From: Mobula hypostoma
Lineage: Eukaryota
Direction of reading: 5' to 3'
Assembly: GCF_963921235.1 (NCBI RefSeq)
Contig: NC_086097.1
Location: 171,680,001 to 171,744,000 of the forward strand
DNA length: 64,000 nt
Of this stretch, positions 26,958-44,480 are shown piece after piece. The first letter of the stretch is position 1, and the number at the start of each line of letters is the position of its first letter. Made by a program: the position numbers and the translations under genes. The notes beneath the pieces were generated by a model. It had not been told where the DNA came from and did not search any database. It saw only the letters and a program-made list of their open reading frames with translations.

Positions 26958-28820
26958 CATAGAAACATAGAAAACCTACAGCACAATACAGGCCCTTCAG
27001 CCCACAAAGCTGTGCCGAACATGTCCTTATCTTAGAACTATATAGGCCTACCTATAGCCCTCTATTTCTCTAAGCTCCACGTACCTATCCAGGAGTCTCT
27101 TAAAAGACCCTATCATTCCCGCCTCCGCCACCGCCACCGGCAGCCCATTCCACGCATTCATCTCTCCCTGCATAAAAAACTTAGCCCTGACATCTCCTCT
27201 GTACCTACTTCCAAGCACATCAAAATTATGTCCTCTCGTGCTAACCATTTCAGCCCTGAGAAAAATCCTCTGACTATCCACACAATCAATGCCTCTCATT
27301 ATCTTGTACAACTCTATCAGGGCACCTCTCATCCTTCACCGCTCCAAGGAGAAAAGCCCGAGTTCACTCAACCCATTCTCACAAGTCATGCTCCCCAATC
27401 CAAGCATCATCCTTGTAAATCTCCTCTTCACCCTTTCTATGGTTTCCACATCCTTCCTGTAGTGATGCGACCAGAATTGAGCACAGTACTCCGAGTGGGG
27501 TCTGACCAGGGTCCTATATAGATGCAACATTACCTCTCAGCTCTTAAACTCAATCCCACGGTTGATGAAGGTCAATGCACCGTATGCCTTCTTAACCACA
27601 GTCAACCTGCTTGGGGACTCAGACCCCAAGATCTCTCTGATCCTCCAAACTGCCAAGACTCTTACCATTAATACTTATATTCTGCCATCATATTTGACCT
27701 ACCAAAATGAACCACCTCACACTTATCTGGGTTGAACTCCATCTGCCACTTCTCAGCCCAGTTTGGCATCCTATCAATATCCCGCTGTAACCTCTGACAG
27801 CCCTCCACACTATCCACAACACCCCCAACGTTTGTGTCATCAGCAAATTTACTAACCCATCCCTCCATTTTCTCATCCAGGTCTTTTATAAAAATCATGA
27901 AGAGAACGGGTCCCAGAACAGATCCCTGAGACACACCACTGATTACCAACATCCATGCAGAATATGACCCATCTAGAACCACTCTTTGCTTTCTGTGGGT
28001 AAGCCAGTTCTGGATCCACAAAGCAATGTCCCCTTGGATCCCTTGCCTCAATAAGCCTTGTATGGGATGCCTTATCAAATACTTTGCTGAAATCCATATA
28101 CACTACACCTATGGCTCTACCTTCATCAATGTGCTTAATCACATCCTCAAAAAGTTCAATCAGGCTCATAAGGCACGACCTGCCTTTGACAAAGCCATGC
28201 TGACTATTCCTAATCATATTATACCTCTCCAAATGTTCATAAATCCTGCCTCTCAGGATCTTCTCCAACAACTTACCAACCACTGAAGTAAGACTCATTG
28301 GTCTATAATTTCCTGGGCTATCTCTACTCCCTTTCTTGAATAAGGGAACAACATCCGCAACCCTCCAATCCTGCAGAACCCCTCCCGTTCCCATTGATGA
28401 TGTAAAGATCATTGCCAGAGGCTCAGCAATCTCCTCCCTCGCCTGAGGTACATCCCAACCGGTCCCCATGACTTATCCAACTTGATGCTTTCCAAAAGCT
28501 CCAGCACATCCTCTTCCTTAATATCTACATGCTCAGGCTTTTCAGTCCACTGCAAATCATCCCTACAATTGCCAAGATCCTTTTCCGTAGTGAATACTGA
28601 AGCAAAGTATTCACTAAGTCCTTCTGCTATCTCCTCCGGTTCCACACGCACGTTTCCACTATCACACTTGATTGGTCCTATTCTCTCACATCTTATCCTC
28701 TTGCTGTTCACATACTTGTAAAATGCCTTGGGTTCTTTTCCATAATCCTGTCGGCCAAGGCCTTCTCATGGCCCCTTCTGGCTCTCCTAATTTCATTCTT
28801 AAGCTCCTTCCTGCTAGCCT
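26958..28820 (-). mobile_element. CR1 LINE ORF2 fragment, frameshifted with internal deletions, adjoining a Rex1 fragment at 26800-26957
   Basis: NYRPMSLTS, MDFSKVFD, QGSVLGP, KFADD and VRPHSEYC motifs. (CATAGAAA)n tail at ~26957-26975. Confidence 0.92.
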
Positions 28821-29104: not shown

Positions 29105-29526
29105 TGTAGGAGCAAAAGGAAAGATCACTCAAGAGTTGATATTCCAAATAACGGGTGATTTACTAAAAACTGGTACGCACCAGGAGTCCAGTCACTGCTA
29201 AATCTACCTGAGCATGTATTTGTAGAGATTTCACTTTCTCAGTTGATGAGAATACCAGCAAATCTTCACTTTGATAACAGAAAAAGTTAATTAAGTAATG
29301 AACTAGGTCCTGATTACAGAATAAACTGATATTCACAGGACTAACAGTAAATTCAATTTTCTATTACAACAATGGGTGCACACTATAATATAACTTACGA
29401 TACTCCTGAACCGTCATTACTGCTACATTCCATTCCCCATGTCACTGCTTTACCTGTTACCATATTAGCACAATCCACATCTCTATTTACTCGTTACTAG
29501 CCCTCATTATTCCTTCCCATACAACA
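29105..29526 (-). repeat. ERV 3' LTR
   Basis: Shares blocks with 36496-36920 (TTCTCAGTTGATGAG, TTAATTAAGTAA, ACTAGGTCCTGATTACAGA, GTTACTAGCCCTCA). TG/CA termini. Preceded on the minus strand by PPT AAGAGGGGGA at 29528-29537. Confidence 0.88.
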
Positions 29527-29579
29527 GTCCCCCTCTTGGCCCTTGGACTGAAATGGCCAGAAGGGCCTAAAGATTAAAT

Positions 29580-32083
29580 CCCTAACAGGACCCTTGTTAA
29601 GCCTAGTAAATGACAATGCCTCTAATGTCAATTCTCTACCTGCTTTCATAGTACACACACTAAAATGGTAACGGTCATTTAAATAAACAGCTAAACAACA
29701 ACCATAATATGAGAGATAAGTCGAATCCAGGGATGGATTTCTATATTCAAACCATAATTTCAAATACTGCCCCAAAGGGTCAGGTTTTCTAGAGCCACCG
29801 TGGCTCCATTTTCATGATCTGTTATCCTTTTCTGCGGGACGTCCCATTTCTTAATGACTTCCTTAGGGAGGAGGTGATAGCAGCGTGCCACACGCACGTA
29901 GCTCTCCGGTGAAAATGATATCGTATCCATCAAATAGGGGCCATGGACAATTCTGATTTGATGGAGACAGACGTGAAAGTACAGAGGAACATCTGGAGAA
30001 ATTTCTGAAAGACCAGTTCGCTGCTGCTGTTACTGCGTGATCGAAAATCTTCCGGAGGGAAGGTCTCAAAATCCCCTGCTTTGCCTGTTGCTGGTGACCG
30101 AGACTGAGGTCGAATCGTTCGGATAGAGATGGTGCTCGGTACTCGGTGTCAGAGGGCTGATCGGAGGCTCAAATTTTTCGGACTGTGGTCGGGCATGGCA
30201 GGGAGAGTTTTTTTCCTTCTCCCGTTTGCGGGAGATGTGGGACTTTCCAGAAACTTTGAACTTTTTTACTGTGCCATGGGCTGCTCTTCATCAAGTTATG
30301 GTACTGTTGCACTGTTGTAACTATATATTATAATTATGTGGTTTTGTTAGTTTTTTCAGTCTTGGTCTGTCCTGTGTTTTGTGATATCGCACCCGAGAAA
30401 TATTGTATCATTTCTTAATGCATGCGTTACTAAATGACAATAAAAGAGGACTGCGTGTCCTCATAATCTAATCTAATCTAATCTTCTAGGATGATCTTTT
30501 CCCAATCAGCAGTAAAGTGTGGAATGGGTGGCAATTCTGTGCCACATCCTTGTGCAATTTTTTGTCTACGTCACTACCATAAACAGTAAACTGCGTCTCC
30601 AGCATTCCTGCTTAGGCAAGCTCTGCACCGCAATAGTTAATTTGGCTGAGATGTACTGGTTGCCACATTATAGCTGTTGCAATGCCCATTCTAATATGCT
30701 CTTGCTGATACTGCGATGTGGTAAGTAGATGTTCTTTATTAAAGTTAATTTCAGGAAGATTTAATTTTTTAACATCATTATGAGCAGGGAACGGTTATCA
30801 TACAGTATGTAGCAAAATCTCATTCCGTCAGGCCTCTTCTTACAATCTCCTGTGTTCATGCCCAATGATTACCCCTTTGGTGACATTGCATCAAGTTGAC
30901 CCCCATCTTCACTTGTGTAACTCGATTGCATAGGTCAGTGGGTTGCTTAGAGATATCCAAGTCCCTCAAGGTATTTTCAATATTATGCGCTCTCATGAGA
31001 GAGTACACCTGATTGTCGTATCAGAGACTGCTACAACATACGGTAGACTCCTCATTTTCGCAGTCTTTCAAGACATGATTAGTCAAGAGTGAGATCTCAA
31101 ATGTGGCTCACGGGGGCACCTTCACCCACCCATTCTTTCGATTCTTTTGGCTGGAAGTCTAACACCCAGCATCCCCCCACCCTTCTAACTGCAGAATGTC
31201 TGCCCCGACTACAGACAAAAATCAGGCAGCGTATATTGTACACTGCATCTGCATTTTGATCACGGCCTCGGATAGCATTGCTCACTCTCTCAATAACATC
31301 ATTAGTTATATATTTTAGTGGCTGCAATAACTAGATAGTTTCCAACTCCACTTCTGCCCCTTGCTTCCCTATTCTACTAACTTATCCCAAGTCACCATAG
31401 TTTTGCTTTATAATCTCCTTTAGCTTCCGCCAGAGTGAACTGATCTGCGTTTTTATTTCTACTGTATCTAAAGTATTGATTGTGGAGACCTTGCTGAGCA
31501 TCCTGCTCCTAACAACTCTACCAGGCCAGGCCCCTTTTCCTCCTTGGCCTCTCTGTCCTAAACTCACTATGAGTAACTTGCCTGTAGAGTACCAGCACAT
31601 GCCTGTAGCCTGGTACCACAATAACTCTTTCACTCCTATTATCCAACCCTATACCTATACCCCCAGTGTCCGACACTGTGGTGTTCTTTTGGTAGCAGGG
31701 ATACCTCAGTGATCGATTCCCAAACCAAGCGGCCCCGTCGCGTTACCATACGAGCTTCATTGCCGCACCTCAGTGTTTCGTGAATGGTTATGACAAGAAT
31801 AAGCACGGGATCCCCCTCTCGCGCACACCCAATCCTCACCTGGATCCCCCCACCGAGCGCTGGGCGGTTTTCAAATGTCCATTTCACAGCAGCGCATACT
31901 ATTACGTCTCTCATATCGAAAGGCATAGCCTTGGTACACCCCACAGCTGGTCATTCTTCGTTATTCCCTCGGTTTACAGTCTGCATTTTACTTGCTCTCG
32001 AGAGATAGTATCTCAAAAGAATGGCACATTCACTTATCCAAATTCTTCTGAGTGTTGTTTGTAGGGATCCCTGTTTACTGTTC
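29580..32083 (-). pseudogene. env: ERV env remnant (class I fusion protein with N-proximal cleavage site)
   Basis: RPRRKR furin site (31533-31544), then GLVELLGAG..VSTINTLDTVEIKTQISSL fusion peptide and heptad after correcting frameshifts. Cys-containing region at ~30780-30930. W-rich membrane-proximal segment and TM at ~29648-29720. Many stops. Confidence 0.75.
29868..30483 (+). mobile_element. Non-coding retroposon (LINE-tailed) inserted in the ERV env
   Basis: T-rich 3' end, AATAAA and a (TAATC)n tail at ~30464-30483. Imperfect CTTC(C)TAGG duplication at the ends. Env-like sequence resumes on both sides. Confidence 0.7.
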
Positions 32084-32110
32084 CTGTAGAAATACGTTTG
32101 CATTGTTAAA

Positions 32111-35100
32111 TCATTTCTGCCCAAGGTGTCTTTTCAGGTGGGACCAGTGTTTCCACATTGGCCGTTCCTTTGTTTCTCCTAGGGCACATATTTCTCCAGT
32201 CAAGATGGCCATACGGTCCTCCCCATCTGTGTCCTGGTTTTCTGGTACAATTTTAACCATTACCTGATCTCTCGCTTCTGGCAGGTTCCCCTTCACTTGG
32301 GCATTCTCGTGCTCCAGTCCCGCATTCTCTGTCGATCAATTACTTCCTCTTTTAGACCATGCAGATGAATGGCTAACTCCCGTACAAAGTAGATAATCCA
32401 GTCCTTACCATTGCAGCTCTACAGTCCTACTGTAATTATCCTCCAATCGTTGCATAGCCCGTCCTGTCGTTAATTTAAGAGGAATAAATCTTGTCCCACG
32501 AACAGGGCTCGCTCGTAGTTTCATCAGCACTGTTGGTAAGACCAACTTTCCCCGGCCTTCGCTAAGCTCCCTTTTAGGGTACGATTCAATTTCCCAATCA
32601 TGCCAGATCTCCGAGGTCAGTATGGAATGTGAAACTTCTATTTGACCCCTAACGACTTGATTGTCTCCGCGGTAAAACGTGACCCCTGCTCCGAATCAAG
32701 GCTGGCCAGTGTTCTCCGCCTGGGTATTACCTCCTCAGCTTGCACACGGGTTGCTGTCTTAGCGGAGCAATCCCCATATGGGAACGCTTGCAGCCACCTG
32801 GTGAACCGATCAGCAATCATCAAACAATACCATTTACCCTTGGGTTGGAGTAATGGCCCTGTGAAGTCCATCTGACGTTGTTCTCATGGATCGTTAGGCC
32901 GTGGCTGATGCCCTAGTCGGATATTAACTGCTTTACCTGTGTCACATTGGGCCCAAGTTATTACCTGCTGGCAGAATTAAGCTGTATCTCTCCCCACCAC
33001 CAGCCACAACCAGTATCTTTATAGCTGGGTTCTCATCTTATTCCACCCTATGTCAGCTAAACCGTGGTGGGTTTTAACAAATGATGTCTGATGCACTCCA
33101 GGGCTATCACACTGTCACCTTTTCACTACATCACATCTTTTTGCACTGCTCCTGTCTGTTCCCAAATCCACTATTCCTCTGAAGACGCCGTTTCCTGTAT
33201 AGCCTTTGAATCTTCCTCCTTCGCCTCCCCGATCATCGCTACCTCCACTGGGACAGGACCACATTCCTCCACAATTGCCTTAGCTGCCTGTTCAGCAAAC
33301 AGATTTCCCTTTTGCTCAGGGATGTCCACCCTTCTGTGTGGCTTAATCTTCATGACTGCCACTGTCTGGGGCAGTTCAGCAGTTTCAACTAACTCCTTCC
33401 CCATTTCTTCACAATGTATATGCCCTCCTGATGAGGTTGTATACCCACTCCCTGCACAGGCTGCCCTGTAATCATGTACTACTTCAAATGGGTGTCTACC
33501 GTCTGTGAAAATGTTCACCTTTTTTGTCCTTACCAAATATAAGGGCCTCTGTTGGCGCTTTCAGTTCTGTCACCTGTGCTGACCTGGGGCCCGGGAGTTC
33601 TCCTGGCAGTAGTTTCCCTCCATTATCTAAAACAATCCATTCTGTTCCTGGACTACCGTCATGGACCCATCTACAAAAAGGGTCAACATACTACTCCCTC
33701 TAAGGACCTTTCTCCTGTGACTGACTCCTCAGGTCCTGGCTTTAGTGACATGCACACATGCAGGGATCCACCTTGTCTTATCAAACTGGCTGGGTTAATC
33801 TAACTATGTTGCAATGGGGCGTAGGGAAGCGGACCCAAGTGTAGGACACAGGCACGGAGAGCGGGTTAGGATCCTTACGCGGACTTGAACGTTGACTTGG
33901 ACTCGGAGCCTGGACTTGGACATGACTTGAACACCGAGCGACAAAACTAAACAATGACAGACAATCCGTATCGTGGCTTGAAGCAGCAGCAAACGGCCTG
34001 CAGTACTCAGCCGTACACAAGACGACAAAAACGACAGACAATTAGTATCACGGTTCGGAGCAGCGGCAAATGGTCTGCAATACTCAGCCAGACATATCAC
34101 GACAAAACAAACAATGACAGACAATTCGTATCGCGGCTTGGAGTAGCGACAAATGGCCTGCAATCCTCAGCCGGACAAGAGACGACAAAAACCAACAACG
34201 ACAGTCCATTCATATCTCAACTCCGGGTAACATGTGAAGCGGCAAACAGCCAGCAAAACTCAGCTGGACGGCAGAGTCTCGACTCGACCCAGGAACTGCG
34301 AATGGCAGACTCTCAACTCGACTCATTCTCAATGGCTTGGAACGAGCATGGCTGCACTGCTGAGGTGACGAACCAGCAGCGAGTAGATGTAAGCCGAAGT
34401 TTTAATGCTGCCGGTTCGAATGAGGATCAGGTGCCCTAATCAAGGAGCCCAGTGGAACACGGGGAAAAGGAAATTAACTGAAATAAGGAGTCAACGGACC
34501 AGACTGTGACAAACTATCCCTTCTATCTGTACTTATTGTATGCAGGTAACAATACCGCATCCCATTTCACTTGCCTGCTGTCGGACATTGCCTGACAGCG
34601 CAATGTTCTCCAGGAGAGTGACAACGTCATGAGATGTGTGCAAGACTATTTGATTTCTAACCCATCAGAGTAATAGGTTCTGACGCTTGAACGACCCAAA
34701 TTGCATACATGCAGTCCTGGTGCTACAGGGCCCCATTTACAGAATAATATGCTATAGGCCATAGCTTGTCACCTTGTTCTTGACGTACAAGAGCTTTATA
34801 AAACTCCCTCTGGTTGTCATAAAAAAATATGGATCGATCTGTTCATTTCCGGCAAACTCAAACCCGGTACCTCAGGTAGAATTTGCTTTAGACGCGAAAT
34901 GGTTTGATCTAACTCCAGCATCCATTCCACCTGTTCTTTGCCCTGTTCCCCTCTTCTTACCAGAGCGGGTTCGAGGTTCGGCGAGCTCAGCGTAACTTTC
35001 CACAAAACTGCAACCGTAATTTAGGAGCCCTGAAGTATGACGGATTCCTTTCACTGTTTACGGGTGGGGGAGTTTAAGAATTGCTTCTTTACGTTCCTTG

Positions 35101-35800
35101 GATATTACTTTCTCACCTGTTTAATCTTGTGTCTCAAATATACAACTTCAGACTGTCCAAACTGTACCTTGGAAGGGTTTACCTTCAGTCCCGCATTTTC
35201 GATAACCTGTAACATCCTCAAAACCACTCGAATGTGCTATTTCTCTCCCGGAGATGAATATCATCCAGGTTTTACAAAATACCGCTACTAGTATCTGCCA
35301 AGGGAACATGGGCAATTATTTTAGCCACACGTCGATGGAAAATGGCGAGACTGTAATGAAAACCCAAAAGCAACTTTGTCCAAGTCTCCTGTCTCTGGAT
35401 GGCAAAAGCTAACTTATCCTATCAGGATATACTGGAATTGATCACATACCACTTGCAATATCTGAGATAGTAAAAATATCCTGTTCTGGCCTCAGGCCAT
35501 TCAAAACTTAGATGGGTTTGTCACTATAGTGACACATTTGCTCAGAGAGGTACAATCAATGGTTAGCCGGTAGGGTTGGCTTGGCTTAGGTGCTGACCAT
35601 TTTGGGGAAATTATGCGGGAAATGGTTGGCCAGATTACTCCTCTTTGTTGCAGTTCTGTGGCTATCATTACCACTACAACCTCTGCTTCAATTTTAATGG
35701 GGTACTGTCTAAGAGGTGGGTGTGATTGTCCTTCTATTCGAATGGGTGTCATCTCATCGAGGTCACAGTCCTGTTTGTGAGTGGCCCATATGTAAGGATA
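32111..35800 (-). pseudogene. pol: ERV pol remnant (RT, tether, RNase H, integrase)
   Basis: WATHKQDC..TPIRIEG..QYPIK, YRLTID, FTISDIASGM*SIP, GFHYSLAIFH, NLDD (YxDD position), GLKVNPSK. RNase H FVDGS, NIFTDG, KGNLFAEQAAK. IN MDFTGPL..DRFTRW..DSEQG, GPY, WKHWSHLK. Confidence 0.9.
33807..34511 (-). mobile_element. Solo LTR (705 bp, probably Gypsy-type) inserted in the ERV pol
   Basis: TGTTGCA...TGTGACA ends. 5-bp TSD AACTA at 33802-33806 and 34512-34516. Internal ~80-bp tandem array at ~33939-34270. Confidence 0.85.
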
Positions 35801-36474
35801 TGCTACCGAGGGCCGATACTTGTCACTTCGTCTGGAGTTGTTTTAACTTCTCTGCCGAGATCTGGAAAATGGGTCCCGCTACACTACCTCTACAGCTTCT
35901 TCAACCTTTGTGAAAAAGCATTTCTCATCATTTCGTTTGACAGTGGGTAATTCATTTAGCAACGTCTGTTCCTCCATTGCTGTAAATGGTTCTTCCACCC
36001 TGGACTCTGCTGCACTATTCCCTATTCTCTTCCAGACAACCCAGAGGAGTGCCAACTCTGAGGCACCAGCTGCATCAGCCAAATCATCCCTAGCTATATA
36101 CGTACATGTGCCTTACTAAGACTTTTGCACACTACCTTATGTCTCAAATAACGGTTTGTGAATCAATTCCCCAATTCGATTGCAACCCAAAACCACCTGG
36201 ACCCCGTCTGCCAGTTACCCAGACACCCAAAATTGGTTAGTCAATTGATTCCTCGATTCAATTGCAACCTATAGCCACCTGGACCCAGTCTGCCAGTTAT
36301 CTTTACACCTCAATCCCCTGGCCTCTGACACCAAATTCCTCAAGCTCCAAAGTCTATTTGTACCAGAACTTACAGTTGCAGTCAACTATGGGTTATACCC
36401 CAATTTAACTGGATAGCATCTCAAACACACTCACCCAACCAGGAGCCTCATAGTCGGTTGGGATCCAATGGGAG

Positions 36475-36492
36475 ATCATGCCAACTACTCCA
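36475..36492 (-). promoter_or_regulatory. ERV primer binding site for tRNA-Ser
   Basis: Minus strand reads TGGAGTAGTTGGCATGAT versus TGGCGTAGTCGGCAGGAT expected for tRNA-Ser (15/18 match), 3 nt from the LTR end. Confidence 0.8.
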
Positions 36493-36495
36493 ATT

Positions 36496-36920
36496 TGAGG
36501 AGTAAGCTGAAAGATAATGGAGTTGGTGCTCAAAATACAGGCCATTTATTAAAATCTGGAGGACCAGTCAAAACTGATCTACCCGAGCATGAATTTGGTA
36601 GGGCTTTGACATTCTCAGTTGATGAGATTACCAGTAAAATCACATTTTGATAACAGAATGGTGGTTACAGGAAGATTTAATTAAGTAACAGACTAGGTCC
36701 TGATTACAGAGACAAATGATTGCCCGCAAGTCTAACAGTAAATCCAGTTTTCTATTACAATTATTGGTGCCTGCTATTACATAATTGCTGAAACTCATGA
36801 AACTTGGAAATCATCACTGCTACTTTACATGTCTTTGCTTCTAGGCATTCTTTGTGGTTTCCTGTTACCACATTAGAACAGTTCACTAGTTACTAGCCCT
36901 CACTATTTTCCTCTACAGCA
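36496..36920 (-). repeat. ERV 5' LTR
   Basis: Diverged direct repeat of 29105-29526, immediately followed by the PBS. Confidence 0.88.
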
Positions 36921-37991: not shown

Positions 37992-39708
37992 ACAACAGGA
38001 ATTCTGCAGATGCTGGAAATTCAAGCAACACACATCAAAGTTGCTGGTGAACGCAGCAGGCCAAGCAGCATCTATAGGAAGAGGCGCAGTCGACGTTTCA
38101 GGCCGAGACCCTTCGTCAGGACTAACTGAAGGAAGAGTGAGTAAGGGATTTGAAAGCTGGAGGGGGAGGGGGAGGGGGAGATGCAAAATGATAGGAGAAG
38201 ACAGGAGGGGGAGGGATAGAGCCGAGAGCTGGACAGGTGATAGGCAAAAGGGGATACGAGAGGATCATGGGACAGGAATCCGGGAAGAAAGACAAGGGGG
38301 GGGGTGACCCAGAGGATGGGCAAGAGGTATATTCAGAGGGACAGAGGGAGAAAAAGGAGAGTGAGAGAAAGAATGTGTGCATAAAAATGAGTAACAGATG
38401 GGGTACGAGGGGGAGGTGGGGCCTTAGCGGAAGTTAGAGAAGTCGATGTTCATGCCATCAGGTTGGAGGCTACCCAGACGGAATATAAGGTGTTGTTCCT
38501 CCAACCTGAGTGTGGCTTCATCTTTACAGTAGAGGAGGCCGTGGATAGACATGTCAGAATGGGATGGGATGTGGAATTAAAATGTGTGGCCACTGGGAGA
38601 TCCTGCTTTCTCTGGCGGACAGAGCGTAGATATTCAGCAAAGCGGTCTCCCAGTCTGCGTCGGGTCTCACCAATATATAAAAGGCCACATCGGGAGCACT
38701 GGACGCAGTATATCACCCCAGTCGACTCACAGGTGAAGTGATGCCTCACCTGGAAGGACTGTTTGGGGCCCTGAATGGTGGTAAGGGAGGAAGTGTAAGG
38801 GCATGTGTAGCACTTGTTCCGCTTAGACGGATAAGTGCCAGGAGAGAGATCAGTGGAGAGGGATGGGGGGGACGAATGGACAAGGGAGTTGTGTAGGGAG
38901 CGATCCCTGCGGAATGCAGAGAGAGGGGGGGAGGGAAAGATGTGCTTAGTGGTGGGATCCCGTTGGAGGTGGCGGAAGTTACGGAGAATAATATGTTGGA
39001 CCTGGAGGCTGGTGGGGTGGTAGGTGAGGACCAGGGGAACCCTATTCCTAGTGGGGTGGTGGGAGGATGGAGTGAGAGCAGATGTACGTGAAATGGGGGA
39101 GATGCGTTTGAGAGCAGAGTTGATGGTGGAGGAAGGGAAGCCCCTTTCTTTAAAAAATGAAGACATCTCCCTCGTCCTAGAATGAAAAGCCTCATCCTGA
39201 GAGCAGATGCGGCGGAGACGGAAGAATTGCGAGAAGGGGATGGCGTTTTTGCAAGAGACAGGGTGAGAAGAGGAATAGTCCAGATAGCTGTGAGAGTCAG
39301 TAGGCTTATAGCACACATCAGTGGATAAGCTGTCTCCAGAGACAGAGACAGAAAGATCTAGAAAGGGGAGGGAGGTGTCGGAAATGGACCAGGTAAACTT
39401 GAGGGCAGGGTGAAAGTTGGAGGCAAAGTTAATAAAGTCAACGAGTTCTGCATGCGTGCAGGAAGCAGCGCCAATGCAGTCGTCGATGTAGCGAAGGAAA
39501 AGTGGGGGACAGATACCAGAATAGGCACGGAACATAGATTGTTCCACAAACCCAACAAAAAGGCAGGCATAGCTAGGACCCATACGGGTGCCCATAGCTA
39601 CACCTTTAGTTTGGAGGAAATGGGAGGAGCAAAAGGAGAAATTATTAAGAGTAAGGACTAATTCCGCTAGACGGAGCAGAGTGGTGGTAGAGGGGAACTG
39701 GTTAGATT
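37992..39708 (-). mobile_element. Young 5'-truncated Penelope-like element (Neptune-like), RT plus GIY-YIG
   Basis: ORF 38450-39595: MGTRMGPSYACLFVG, RYIDD, Cys linker KCYTC, VIYC..C..LYIGET. One C-terminal frameshift. pLTR at ~37992-38430. Perfect 15-bp TSD AAGAAATTGTGGAGA at 37977-37991 and 39709-39723. Confidence 0.95.
38088..38123 (-). ncRNA. Minimal hammerhead ribozyme motif with intact core
   Basis: Minus strand reads AGTC-CTGACGA-AGGGTCTCGGCCT-GAAA-CG-TC-GACT. Confidence 0.8.
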
Positions 39709-41600
39709 AAGAAATTGTGGAGAGTTGTGAATGTAGCTCAGTCCATTACACAAACCAATCTCCTCTCCATGGACTCTTCCTATACTCCCACTGTCTCAGA
39801 AAAGCAGCTAATTTAACCTGGGACCTTCCAGCCCTGGTCATTCTATTTGCTCCCCTCTCCTGTCAGGAAGAAGCTACAAAAGTTTGAGAACATATACCAC
39901 CAGGCTCAAACACAGCTTCTATCCCACTGTTATAAGATTCATGAACAGTCACCCTGTATGATCAAGGTGAACTCTTGACCTTTCAATCTACCTCTGTTGT
40001 GGCCCTTACTCATTATTTGTCTACCTGCACCAAACTTTCTCAGTATGGGTAACACTATATTCTGCATTGTTAGTACTCTTCCCTTGTATTACATTTATCA
40101 ATATACTTGTCCATAGAACGATCTGTATGGATGATATACAAAACAAAGCTTTTCACTGTATCTTGGTATTTTCACAATAATGAACTAATTACTGAAGATC
40201 TATTTCTATGATAAGGAATTTTTAAGAACATAAGATCATATGATACAAGAGCACAAGTATGCCATTTGGCCCATCGAGTCTGCTCTGCCTTTTTATTGTG
40301 GCTGATCCATTCTTCCTCTCAGGCCCAATCTCCTGCCTTCCCCCACCCCACCCTATATCCCTTCATGCCCTGACCAATCAAGAATCTATCAATCACTGAT
40401 TTAAATACACATAAAGATTTGACCTCCAGAGCTGCCTATGGTAATAAGTTCCACAGATTCACTAGTCTCTGGCTGAGGAAATTCCTTTTCATCTTCATTC
40501 TACAAAAACATCCCTCTATTCTGAAGCTGTATCCTCTGGTCTTAGACAATCCGACCATAGGAAATATCCTTTCCTCTTCCAGTCTATCAAGGCCTTTCAC
40601 CATTCAATAGGTTTCAATTAGGTCACCTCTCATTTTCCTGAATTCCAATGAATACAGGCCCAAGCCATCAAATGCTCTTCATAAAACAAGCCATTTAATC
40701 CTGGGATTATTTTCATAAACCTCCGTTGAACCCTCGCTGGTTTCAGCACATCCTTTCTAAGATAATGAGCCCAAAACTGCTCGCAATACTCCAAGTGAGG
40801 CCTCACCAGTGCTTTATAAAATCACAACATTACACTTTGCTTTTATATTCTGGTCCTCTGGAAATGAATGCTAACATCACATTTGCCTTCCTCACCACAG
40901 ATTCAATCTGCAAAGAAACCTTTAAGGAATCCTGCGCAAGGACTCCCAAATCCTTTTGCAACTCAGATTTTTGTAGTTTCTTTCCATTTAGAAAGCAGTC
41001 AATCCTTTCATTTCTTCTGCCAAAGTGCAAGGACATACACTTCCCAATGCTGTAGTCCATCTGACACTTCTTTGACCATTCTCCTAATCAGTCTAAGTTC
41101 TACTGTAGCCTCTCTATTTCCTCAAATCTACCTGTCCTTCCATATATCTTTCTGTCATCTGCAAACTTTGCAACAATGTCATCAATTCCATCATCCAAAT
41201 AATTGACATAATGTATAAAGCAAAAAACTTCGTCCCAACAGACTCCTGTGGAACACCATTACTCACTGGTAGCCAACCAGAAAATGCTCCCTTTATTCCC
41301 ATTCTTTGCCTCCTACCAATCAGCCACAGCTTTATCCATGTCCGTTTCTTTCCTGTAATATCTTGGTCTCATATCTTGTTAACCATAGCTTGTCAAGGGT
41401 CTTCAGAAAATCCAAGTACACAAGATCAATCAATTCTGCTTTGTTTATCCTGTTTGCTATTTCTTCAAAAAATTCCAACAGATTTATCAGGTAAGATTCT
41501 GGCCAACACCTCTCATATGCCTCTCTAATTCCCATTATTCCACTGTAATTCTGATACATTTGACTTTAGCTTCTCTTTCTCAAATTTCAGGGTGAATTCT

Positions 41601-44480
41601 ACCATTGTTGGTAGAATCGCAGGTGGTGACGAGAGGACATACAGGAGTGAGATATGCCAACTAGTGGAATGGTGCCGCAGCAACAACCTGGCACTCAACA
41701 TCAGTAAGACAAAAGGGCTGACAGTGGACTTCAGGAAGGGTAAGACGAAGGAACACAGACCAATCCTCATAGAGGGATCAGAAGTGTAGAGAGTGAGCAG
41801 TTTCAAGTTCCTGGATGTCAAGATCTCTGAGGACCTAACCTGGTCCCAACTTATCAATGCAGTTATAAAGAAGGCAAGAGAGCGACTATATCTCATTAGG
41901 AGTTTGAAGCGATTTGGTGCGTCAATAAGTACACTCAAAGACTTCTACAGATGTACCGTGGAGAGCATTCTGACAGGCTGCATCACTGTCTGGTATGGAA
42001 GGACTACTGCACAGGACCGAAAGAAGCTGCAGAGGGTTGTAAATTTAGTCAACTCCATCTTGGGTACTAGTCTACAAAGTGCCCAGGACATCTTCAAGGA
42101 GCATTGTCTCAGAAAGGCAGCATCCATTATTAAGGACATCCAGCTCCCAGGGCATGTCCTTTTCTCACTGTTACCATCAGGTAGGAGGTACAGAAGCCTG
42201 AAGGTACACCACTCAGTGATTCAGGAACAGCTTCTTCCCCTCTGCCATCCAATTCCTAAATGGATATTGAACCCTTGAACACTACCTCACTTTTTTAATA
42301 TATATTATTTCTATTTTTTGCATAATTTTAATCAATTCAATATACATGTACTATAATTCAGCAGGCCAGGCAGCATCTCTAGGAAGAGGTACAGTCGACG
42401 TTTCAGGCCAAGACCCTTCGTAGGGACTAACTGAAAGAAGAGCTAGTAAAAGATTTGAAAGTGGGAGGGGGAGGGGAAGATCCAAAATGATAGAAGACAG
42501 GAGGGGGAGGGATGGAGCCAAGAGCTGGACAGGTGATTGGCAAAAGGGATATGAGAGGATCATGGGACAGGAGGCCTAGGGAGAAAGAAAAGGGGGAGGG
42601 GGGAAGCCCAGACGATGGCAAGGGGTATAGTCAGAGGGACAGAGGGAGAAAAAGGAGAGTGAGAGAAAGAATGTGTGTATATAAATAAATAACGGATGGG
42701 GTATAAGGGGGAGGTGGGGCATTAGCAGAAGTTTGAGAAGTCAATGTTCATGTCATCAGGTTGGAGGCTACCCAAACGGAATATAAAGTGCTGTTCCTCC
42801 AACCTGAGTGTGGCTTCATCTTTACAGTAGAGGAGGCTGTGAATAGACATATCAGAATGGGAATGGGACGTGGAATTAAAATGTGTGGCCACTGGGAGAT
42901 CCTGCTTTCTCTGGCGGACAGAGCGTAGATGTTCAGTGAAACAACCTCCCAGCCTGCGTCGGGTCTCACCAATATATAGAAGGCCACATCGGGAGCACCG
43001 GACGCAGTATATCACCCCAGCCAACTCACAGGTGAAGTGTCGCCTCACCTGGAAGGACTGTCTGGGGCCCTGAATGGTAGTGAGGGAGGAAGTGTAAGGG
43101 CATGTGTAAAGCACTTGTTCCGCTTACAAGGATAAGTGCCAGGAGGGAGATCAGTGGGGAGGGATGGGGGGGGACGAATGGACAAGGGAGTCGCGTAGGG
43201 AGCGATCCCTGCGGAAAGCGGGGGGGTGGGGGAAGATGTGCTTAGTGGTTGGAGGTGGCGGAAGTTACGGAGAATTATATGTCGGACCTGGAGGCTGGTG
43301 GGGTGGTAGGTGAGGACCAGGGGAACCCTATCCCTTGTGGGGTGGCGGGAGGATGGAGTGAGAGCAGATGTGCGTGAAATGGGGGAGATGCATTTGAGAG
43401 CAGAGTTGATGGTGGAGGAAGGGAAGCCCCTTTCTTTAAAAAAGGAGGACATCTCCTCCATTGCTCCCTACGCGACTCCCTTGTCCATTTGTACCCCCCA
43501 TCCCTCCCCACCGATCTCCCTCCTGGCACTTATCCTTGTCAGTGGAACAAGTGCTACACATGGCCTTACACTTCCTCCCTCACTACCATTCAGGGCCCCA
43601 GACAGTCCTTCCAGGTGAGGCGACACTTCACCTGTGAGTCGGCTGGGGTGATATACTGCGTCCAGTGCTCCCGATGTGGCCTTTTATATATTGGTGAGAC
43701 CCAACGCAGGCTGGGAGATTGTTTCACTGAACACTTACGCTCTGTCCGCCAGAGAAAGCAGGATCTCCCAGTGGCCACACATTTTAATTTCACGTCCCAT
43801 TCCCATTCTGATATGTTTATCCACAGCCTCCTCTACTGTAAAGATGAAGCCACACTCAGGTTGGAAGAACAGCACCTTATATTCTGTCTGAGTAGCCTCC
43901 ACCCTGATGGCATGAACATTGACTTCTCAAACTTCCGCTAATGCCCCACCTCCCCCTCGTAGCCCATCCGTTATTTATTTATTTATATACACACTTTCTT
44001 TTTCTCTCTCTCCGTTTTCTCCCTCTGTCCCTCTCACTATACCCTTTGCCCATCCTCTGGGCTTCCCCCTCCCCCTTTTCTTTCTCCCTAGGCCTCCTGT
44101 CCCATGATCCTCTCATATCCCCTTTGCCAATCACCTGTCCAGCTCTTGGTTCCATCCCTCCCCCTCCTGTCTTCTCCTATCATTTTGGATCTCCCCCTTC
44201 CCCTCCCACTTTCAAACCTCTTACTAACTCTTCCTTCAGTTAGTCCTGACAAAGGGTCTCGGCCCGAAACGTTGACTGTACCTCTGCCTGCCCTGCTGCG
44301 TTCACCAGCAACTTTTATGTGTGTTGGTTGAAATTCCAGCATCTGCAGATTTCCTCGTATATACTGTAATCGATTGATTGATTGATTGATTGATTTTTCT
44401 ATATTATGTATTGCATCAAACTGTTGCTGCTAAGTTAACAAATTTCATAACACATGTTGATGATAATAAACCTGATTCTG
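41601..44480 (+). mobile_element. Rex1-like LINE nested in the CR1, itself interrupted by a PLE
   Basis: ORFs 41592-41789 and 41793-42278 (WCRSNNLALNISKTK, FYRCTVESILTGC). 3'UTR resumes at 44359 and ends AATAAACCTGATTCTG. Confidence 0.88.
42359..44358. mobile_element. Penelope-like element with long inverted duplication (GIY-YIG plus pLTR on both strands)
   Basis: Minus arm 42359-43458 (ORF 42722-43114) and plus arm 43459-44358 (ORF 43489-43941) encode the same VIYC..LYIGET domain. Confidence 0.93.

Follow-up and report, generated by a model that had tools for sequence, protein, structure and literature searches.

An ancient endogenous retrovirus family next to snakehead retrovirus, with a putative paramyxovirus F-type envelope, in a probable ray genome

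The window analysed here, a 64,000-nucleotide stretch of contig NC_086097.1, holds a provirus on the minus strand, flanked by long terminal repeats (LTRs) at 36495–36920 (426 bp) and 29105–29526 (422 bp) that both have TG...CA ends. The original prediction had taken this element for a lokiretrovirus (loki) in a cartilaginous fish. Its gag and pol place it elsewhere, and the overall explanation that we strongly favour is a dead retrovirus of another fish lineage with an envelope (env) of the type of the paramyxo-/pneumovirus fusion protein F. The element and its copies are called family A, a younger env-less relative in the same genome family B, and a third, class-III-like family of this genome is family C; ‘clade X’ denotes the unnamed fish lineage that includes horn-shark and minnow endogenous retroviruses (ERVs), the references P0001 and P0002, and family B. 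The window copy is made up as follows.

36495..36920, minus strand: 5′ LTR, with identical ends in other copies
36475..36492, minus strand: primer-binding site (PBS) for tRNA-Ser(AGA), 15/18 bases
35879..36112, minus strand: gag remnant, best of five gag references being horn-shark ERV gag P0007
34544..35797, minus strand: reverse transcriptase (RT) and tether, broken, 44% to P0002
33807..34510, minus strand: later insert, the solo LTR of another element (TG...CA, 5-bp duplication, 83-bp tandem repeats)
33230..33796, minus strand: tether end and RNase H of gamma/epsilon/snakehead retrovirus (SnRV) type, broken
32100..33105, minus strand: integrase with GPY-like C-terminal part, broken (rve E 1e-7; C-terminal end approximate)
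30484..32100, minus strand: env, N-terminal subunit and most of the fusion subunit, broken (5′ end approximate)
31533..31544, minus strand: RRKR furin-type cleavage site ahead of the fusion peptide
29866..30483, plus strand: later insert, a dispersed repeat with (TAATC)n tail, probably a non-LTR element
29648..29865, minus strand: env C-terminal part, membrane anchor at about 29648–29729, 46% to residues 640–694 of the open relative described below
29528..29537, minus strand: polypurine tract
29105..29526, minus strand: 3′ LTR

This architecture bears out what had been read from the letters alone: two LTRs of about 420 bp, a tRNA-Ser PBS, a polypurine tract, and a pol in the order RT, tether, RNase H and integrase, followed by env, all of them broken (RT core: three stops and four frameshifts). 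The PBS matches the complement of the tRNA 3′ end at 15/18 bases; the 18-mer used for this comparison is what we take to be the 3′ end of tRNA-Ser, and its 3′ sequence is also present in 3/3 genomic tRNA-Ser(AGA) genes tested. Both of the inserts originally proposed are absent from other copies spanning those sites, with borders at 33807–34510 and 29866–30483. Other copies are about 1.1 kb longer between gag and RT, so that the window copy lacks the greater part of gag and, it appears, the protease region. Target-site duplications of 5 bp were found at two other copies (5/5 and 4/5), while none is readable at the window copy, whose LTRs are 71% identical by BLAST and 77% identical over 393 aligned sites. 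The solo LTR within pol contains 3.4 copies of its 83-bp unit and has no match among the other loci compared.

For the placement of gag and pol, each copy was translated on its own, breaks being written as X, and scored in a frame-aware manner against 251 RT references. Homologue searches with the degraded window RT and with an alignment of env pieces found nothing, exact look-ups of RAG1 and of two long env frames found 0/6 and 0/4, respectively, and the viral contigs searched held no clade X or loki relatives. The still legible family B was used as query and yielded 109 and 150 proteins, its closest named relatives coming from Pimephales promelas and Heterodontus francisci. Among the references, P0120 represents SnRV Pol, as it matches the SnRV row of the alignment supplied with the loki paper (PMC7947760) and retrieves a 10,688-nt sequence, the size given for SnRV in PMC12193657. 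P0180 is feline foamy virus (FFV) Pol, and the loki references P0244 and P0247 were assigned by motif match to the alignment of the loki paper, P0247 being by eye nearly its lamprey row. Apart from SnRV, FFV, loki and walleye dermal sarcoma virus (WDSV) type, the group names are working labels based on motifs and a first tree.

The window RT scored 450 against P0002 and 448 against P0001, compared with 218 for SnRV, 181 and 171 for loki, 132 for FFV and 27–40 for ten shuffles. Clade X occupies ranks 1–7 (293–450), with SnRV 15th, loki 50th and 67th and feline foamy virus 120th; identity amounts to 45–47% with P0001/P0002 and 29% with SnRV. In the careful RT tree of 72 rows (10 of 82 were left out, six of family A and four of family B), the window copy and four other family A copies group together (support 100/100) inside clade X (100/97), which stands beside class I (97/89); SnRV comes next (92/90), and loki lies outside all other retroviruses (97/88). 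Clade X is adjacent to SnRV in the RT trees. The other parts of the polyprotein agree. RNase H ranks clade X 1–3 of 80, loki 74 and 78 and foamy 76, and its PDB matches are those of murine leukaemia virus (MLV) and xenotropic MLV-related virus (XMRV), with no PDB match to foamy RNase H at E ≤ 10. The integrase scores highest with clade X (364 and 298, ranks 1–2) and reaches 209 with loki (9th of 140), so that it is not of the loki/CGIN1 type, in a ranking of scores and not a tree. Finally, gag remnants score best on horn-shark gag P0007 among five references in 6/6 copies (the window and five others). Trees and scores together show, at the level of sequence, that gag and pol of family A belong to clade X, lying between SnRV and epsilon/gamma.

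Several points temper this placement. Loki is represented by two references labelled by motif match, the RT tree holds no class II rows, and in an approximately unbiased (AU) test a joint clade of clade X and SnRV was not rejected (p=0.42). In a smaller RT tree (further rows were dropped from these later trees), clade X itself keeps 100/97 and its link to class I has 92/89. Given that link value and the AU result, the place assigned to clade X between SnRV and class I is provisional.

Lokiretrovirus membership, by contrast, does not survive: joining family A to loki was rejected by the AU test (p=0.0018), and the claim of a new host class for loki falls with it. The RT motifs that had suggested this affinity are present in the sequence as quoted, but they are decayed forms of LPQGFHNSPxIF and DIxNGFWS, i.e. 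of the SnRV/class-III type. Other copies carry LPQGFHNSP or a decayed form of it, as in SnRV, and not PFGYxNSPAEF. All loki rows read from the published alignment (10/10) have QYKIP or KYRIP and PFG(Y/L)xNSPA(E/D) (PMC7947760), and the PFG motif occurs in 0/10 family A loci. Across the genome the loki RT motif has no match at 0–1 mismatches, although decayed loki copies could still exist, and the eight inspected matches at 2–3 mismatches are Gypsy-type RT. Loki RNase H is described as grouping with that of foamy viruses (Wang & Han, PMC7947760). Lokiretroviruses were thus ruled out by RT position, RT motifs, RNase H type, integrase and gag. Foamy viruses were rejected since the RT lies outside their clade, with RNase H and integrase also distant. 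A class I (epsilon/gamma) ERV was rejected because the frame-aware phylogeny leaves the RT outside the epsilon/gamma core node (100/99), env has neither immunosuppressive domain (ISD) nor CX6CC motif, and the duplication measures 5 bp, not 4 bp. The original statement that described loki hosts include no chondrichthyan agrees with the screen tabulated by Wang & Han, whose supplement lists six chondrichthyan genomes and, in its Orectolobiformes row, three screened and none positive (PMC7947760).

The envelope had been called atypical, and indeed it lacks gamma-type motifs: its DNA scores 39 against gamma-type env. Its kind emerges through a relative. Searching the genome with one env piece gave 151 places, one of which, outside the window at C2:126459313-126461514, is a complete 733-codon frame. 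Its product combines a signal peptide and a membrane anchor with a furin site at residue 282 and a fusion subunit of 451 residues. At 47% identity to this open relative (score 574; shuffles 35–49), the window env carries 8 stops and 13 frameshifts over residues 213–634 of that relative (about 420 residues). Like the window env, the open relative has no ISD and no CX6CC. An Atlas search with its residues 215–715 gave 0.94 and 0.93 for clusters in which 21% and 88% of the members have PF00523. With a low-confidence model of the protein, 41/41 Foldseek rows listed were viral fusion proteins, namely 39 paramyxo-/pneumovirus F and two coronavirus spike.

Other results speak against an F-type assignment. 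The AlphaFold env model has a mean confidence (predicted local distance difference test, pLDDT) of 35, the best Foldseek template-modelling (TM) scores are 0.15–0.17 at E about 1e-3 (best 9e-4), sequence and profile searches of env pieces in Pfam and PDB gave no F family and no match to PF00523 itself, and a whole-protein Atlas search of the open relative gave leads below 0.9 only. On balance, it is well supported that the window env encodes a predicted class I fusion protein, cleaved by furin, whose long fusion subunit is of the paramyxo-/pneumovirus F type; this falls short of being shown because the evidence runs through a relative and a model of low confidence. Such an envelope does not make an element a lokiretrovirus. 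The loki Env is F-like with an RXKR site (Wang & Han, PMC7947760), but foamy Env is F-like in structure as well (PMC11468914), so an F-like env is no criterion for assigning an element to loki. As gag and pol are not loki, the env type is the only loki-like trait of family A. In the literature searched (mainly outside subscription papers), F-type env is not described outside loki and foamy viruses; bioRxiv 2021.11.23.469661, in the text consulted, covers gamma- and beta-type Env only.

Family A is both numerous and old. Three parts of the element have at least 42, 53 and 85 DNA matches across the 3.48-Gb genome, lower bounds with 40 candidates scored per part, and the long ones show about 70–75% identity. 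Kimura two-parameter (K2P) distances within LTR pairs are 0.27 (window), 0.23 and 0.20, and those of LTRs between copies 0.20–0.28; this similarity indicates dozens of equally old copies that arose in one burst and then decayed neutrally. The formula of Han 2015 yields about 60 million years at the mammalian rate and about 600 million years at the shark rate; since the latter is implausible, we give the age only as tens to a few hundred million years.

The cartilaginous-fish host is supported by a haemoglobin-alpha exon that scores 87 bits on PDB 1cg5 and 61 on 1gcv, presumably stingray and shark, respectively, the other single-chain matches listed reaching at most 55. The host is accordingly an elasmobranch, to judge from such matches probably a ray; a cholinesterase exon did not separate candidate hosts. 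In the same genome, 22 globin exon matches cluster at C36:102.3-103.2 Mb, an unusually large haemoglobin array. Exact tRNA-Ser PBS 18-mers occur 31 times (control 0); 4/4 loci tested are not tRNA genes, and they are therefore probably younger Ser-primed LTR elements. Within the window, the provirus has other mobile elements for neighbours. On the minus strand at 38450–39706 lies a 418-codon RT frame with a GIY-YIG-like end, presumably Penelope-type, with repeated and inverted terminal segments at 38300–44000. Just past the 3′ LTR, at 27668–28765 (minus), are RT fragments of a long interspersed nuclear element (LINE) that we take to be CR1-like.

The open env on C2 (L076:616-2817) merits attention of its own. 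It adjoins a decayed pol whose upstream remnant has 4–7 stops and 3–5 frameshifts over 320–380 codons and has its nearest reference in P0119, a class-III-like Pol from a frog, and not in clade X, which is why we regard the open env as part of a related but separate insertion. The frame is present under seven organism labels (word shares 0.20–0.88). Among the four runs compared, it differs at 11 of 451 bases in organism C and at 25 of 764 in organism G, in both cases with no gaps inside the frame, whereas its 5′ flank shows 31/593 differences with gaps in organism C and 34/418 in organism D. In the long contig of organism D, the indels listed all lie behind the stop codon, 23 further indel rows standing outside that list. 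Among the 20 best-supported in-frame differences listed, 12 are silent, against an expected share of 0.34 (p=0.014). A contig of run X19 does not fit before place 605, the point at which a pyrimidine tract and an AG end, ten bases 5′ of the start codon; this suggests a spliced message, the RNA nature of runs X9 and X19 being a guess. These features make the open env a candidate host-captured gene. Rays are a group with many live-bearing species. If the candidate holds true, the C2 env may be a cell-fusion or antiviral protein, and a host-captured fusion gene in a cartilaginous fish of a type absent from the literature searched, where neither a captured env in cartilaginous fish nor a captured F-type retroviral env is described.

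How did an F-type envelope come to sit on a clade X pol? Clade X itself holds several arrangements: family A has the F-type env, L102 and L103 a gamma-type env with ISD and CX6CC, and L100/L101 and family B are env-less. L102 (4089–5825) and L103 are metagenome contigs with an open clade X pol. Family B (L034–L042, L054–L060) consists of younger proviruses with two zinc knuckles in gag; no env was found in the three loci reaching past integrase, and it probably spread inside cells. Family C (L092/L093, L094, L096, L098, L099), in turn, comprises younger broken gag-pro-pol-env proviruses with LTRs 92% alike in one copy and a PBS that differs from that of family A and is presumably for tRNA-Asn. 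Its RT falls among class-III-like rows in the trees and is 59% identical to the SnRV RT, while its env is of the same kind as that of family A: one family C env piece matches 8/8 family A loci at 39–51%, with SnRV env at background. Between families A and C, env is 42% identical and RT 35%. Since Env normally diverges faster than RT, exchange is the simplest reading, and env was likely swapped between the two lineages, in one direction or the other. The SnRV env (L074:6131-9535) also has a long fusion subunit and may itself be F-type; its alignment with the env family is colinear but weak (233 columns, E 0.009, probability 4.5%), and its fold model is of low confidence (pLDDT 39, best E 1.1).

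The readings that compete with a clade X retrovirus carrying an F-type env differ in what they leave to explain. A lokiretrovirus in a new host class would account for the F-like env with its RXKR site, for an env stretch that resembles, by eye and unscored, a loki Env from the published supplement (PMC7947760), and for tether plus RNase H, which are common to all retroviruses. The AU rejection, the absence of loki motifs from family A and the closeness of RT, RNase H, integrase and gag to clade X have already refuted it for gag and pol, leaving it very improbable as a whole. A further reading is an ordinary member of CmiERV-I, the SnRV-related elephant-shark lineage of clade Huo, already described with its env. 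Lineage I of Han 2015 clusters with SnRV and was defined with a downstream env homologue required (PMC4422223), clade Huo is reported to infect all vertebrate groups (PMC6001957), and a clade of clade X with SnRV was not rejected; yet in the unconstrained trees clade X lies closer to class I than to SnRV, and the literature searched has no F-type env beyond loki and foamy viruses. We consider this membership less likely than not.

It is rather unlikely, in our estimate, that envelopes of F type are ancestral to retroviruses and were inherited vertically in loki, foamy viruses, the SnRV grade and family A, with gamma-type env arising later and then reaching part of clade X and class I. The F-like Env of foamy viruses (PMC11468914) and loki (PMC7947760) and the weak colinear alignment of the SnRV env fit such a history, which would match scenario 1 or 3 as set out by Wang & Han (PMC7947760). 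However, the envs of families A and C resemble each other more closely than the RTs of these families do, and SnRV env, whose fold model is of low confidence, is far more distant from both. Ancestral retention and env exchange are not mutually exclusive.

In the reading we prefer, family A descends from an ancient simple retrovirus that, by its sequence, was primed by tRNA-Ser, made 5-bp duplications (seen at two copies) and had the usual RT–tether–RNase H–integrase order. It colonised the germ line of a ray ancestor, multiplied within a single period to at least dozens of sites and then decayed neutrally. Its env was somewhat more probably gained by recombination with a class-III-like lineage infecting the same hosts; otherwise it would have kept an ancestral F-type env. 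More broadly, we lean towards a picture in which F-type env is not restricted to loki and foamy viruses but spread across the SnRV/class-III grade as far as the sister group of epsilon/gamma, a single clade there having F-type, gamma-type and env-less members, and in which rays have domesticated the C2 env as a conserved spliced gene. The analysis leaves an ERV family adjacent to SnRV whose F-type env was probably acquired by exchange, plus a candidate domesticated env of that type. For the origin of the retroviral envelope, four scenarios are set out by Wang & Han, none of them excluded in the text consulted (PMC7947760). An F-type env on a pol adjoining epsilon/gamma, in a clade that also has gamma-type env, marks a meeting place of both envelope types and makes this origin testable with env trees.

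Among known systems, SnRV and clade Huo come closest, and SnRV-related ERVs are already known from elephant shark (CmiERV, PMC4422223). Shared with family A are the RT motifs LPQGFHxSP and DIxNGFWS, the RNase H type, the 5-bp duplication and a furin site followed by a long fusion subunit, and a joint clade was not rejected; on the other side, family A RT is far nearer P0001/P0002 (45–47%) than SnRV (29%), the envs are barely alignable, and no accessory genes were seen in family A. Epsilon- and gammaretroviruses have an RNase H of the same MLV/WDSV kind, and clade X tends to be their sister group, but family A differs in an RT outside their 100/99 core, an env devoid of ISD and CX6CC and a duplication of 5 bp instead of the 4 bp given in PMC4299795. 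Lokiretroviruses, which may also carry an smc gene, resemble it in LTR-gag-pol-env layout, tether plus RNase H and an F-like Env with RXKR site (PMC7947760), and differ in RT position and motifs, RNase H type, integrase and gag. Foamy viruses, finally, share the F-like fusion protein fold (PMC11468914), while their RT, RNase H and integrase are far from those of family A.

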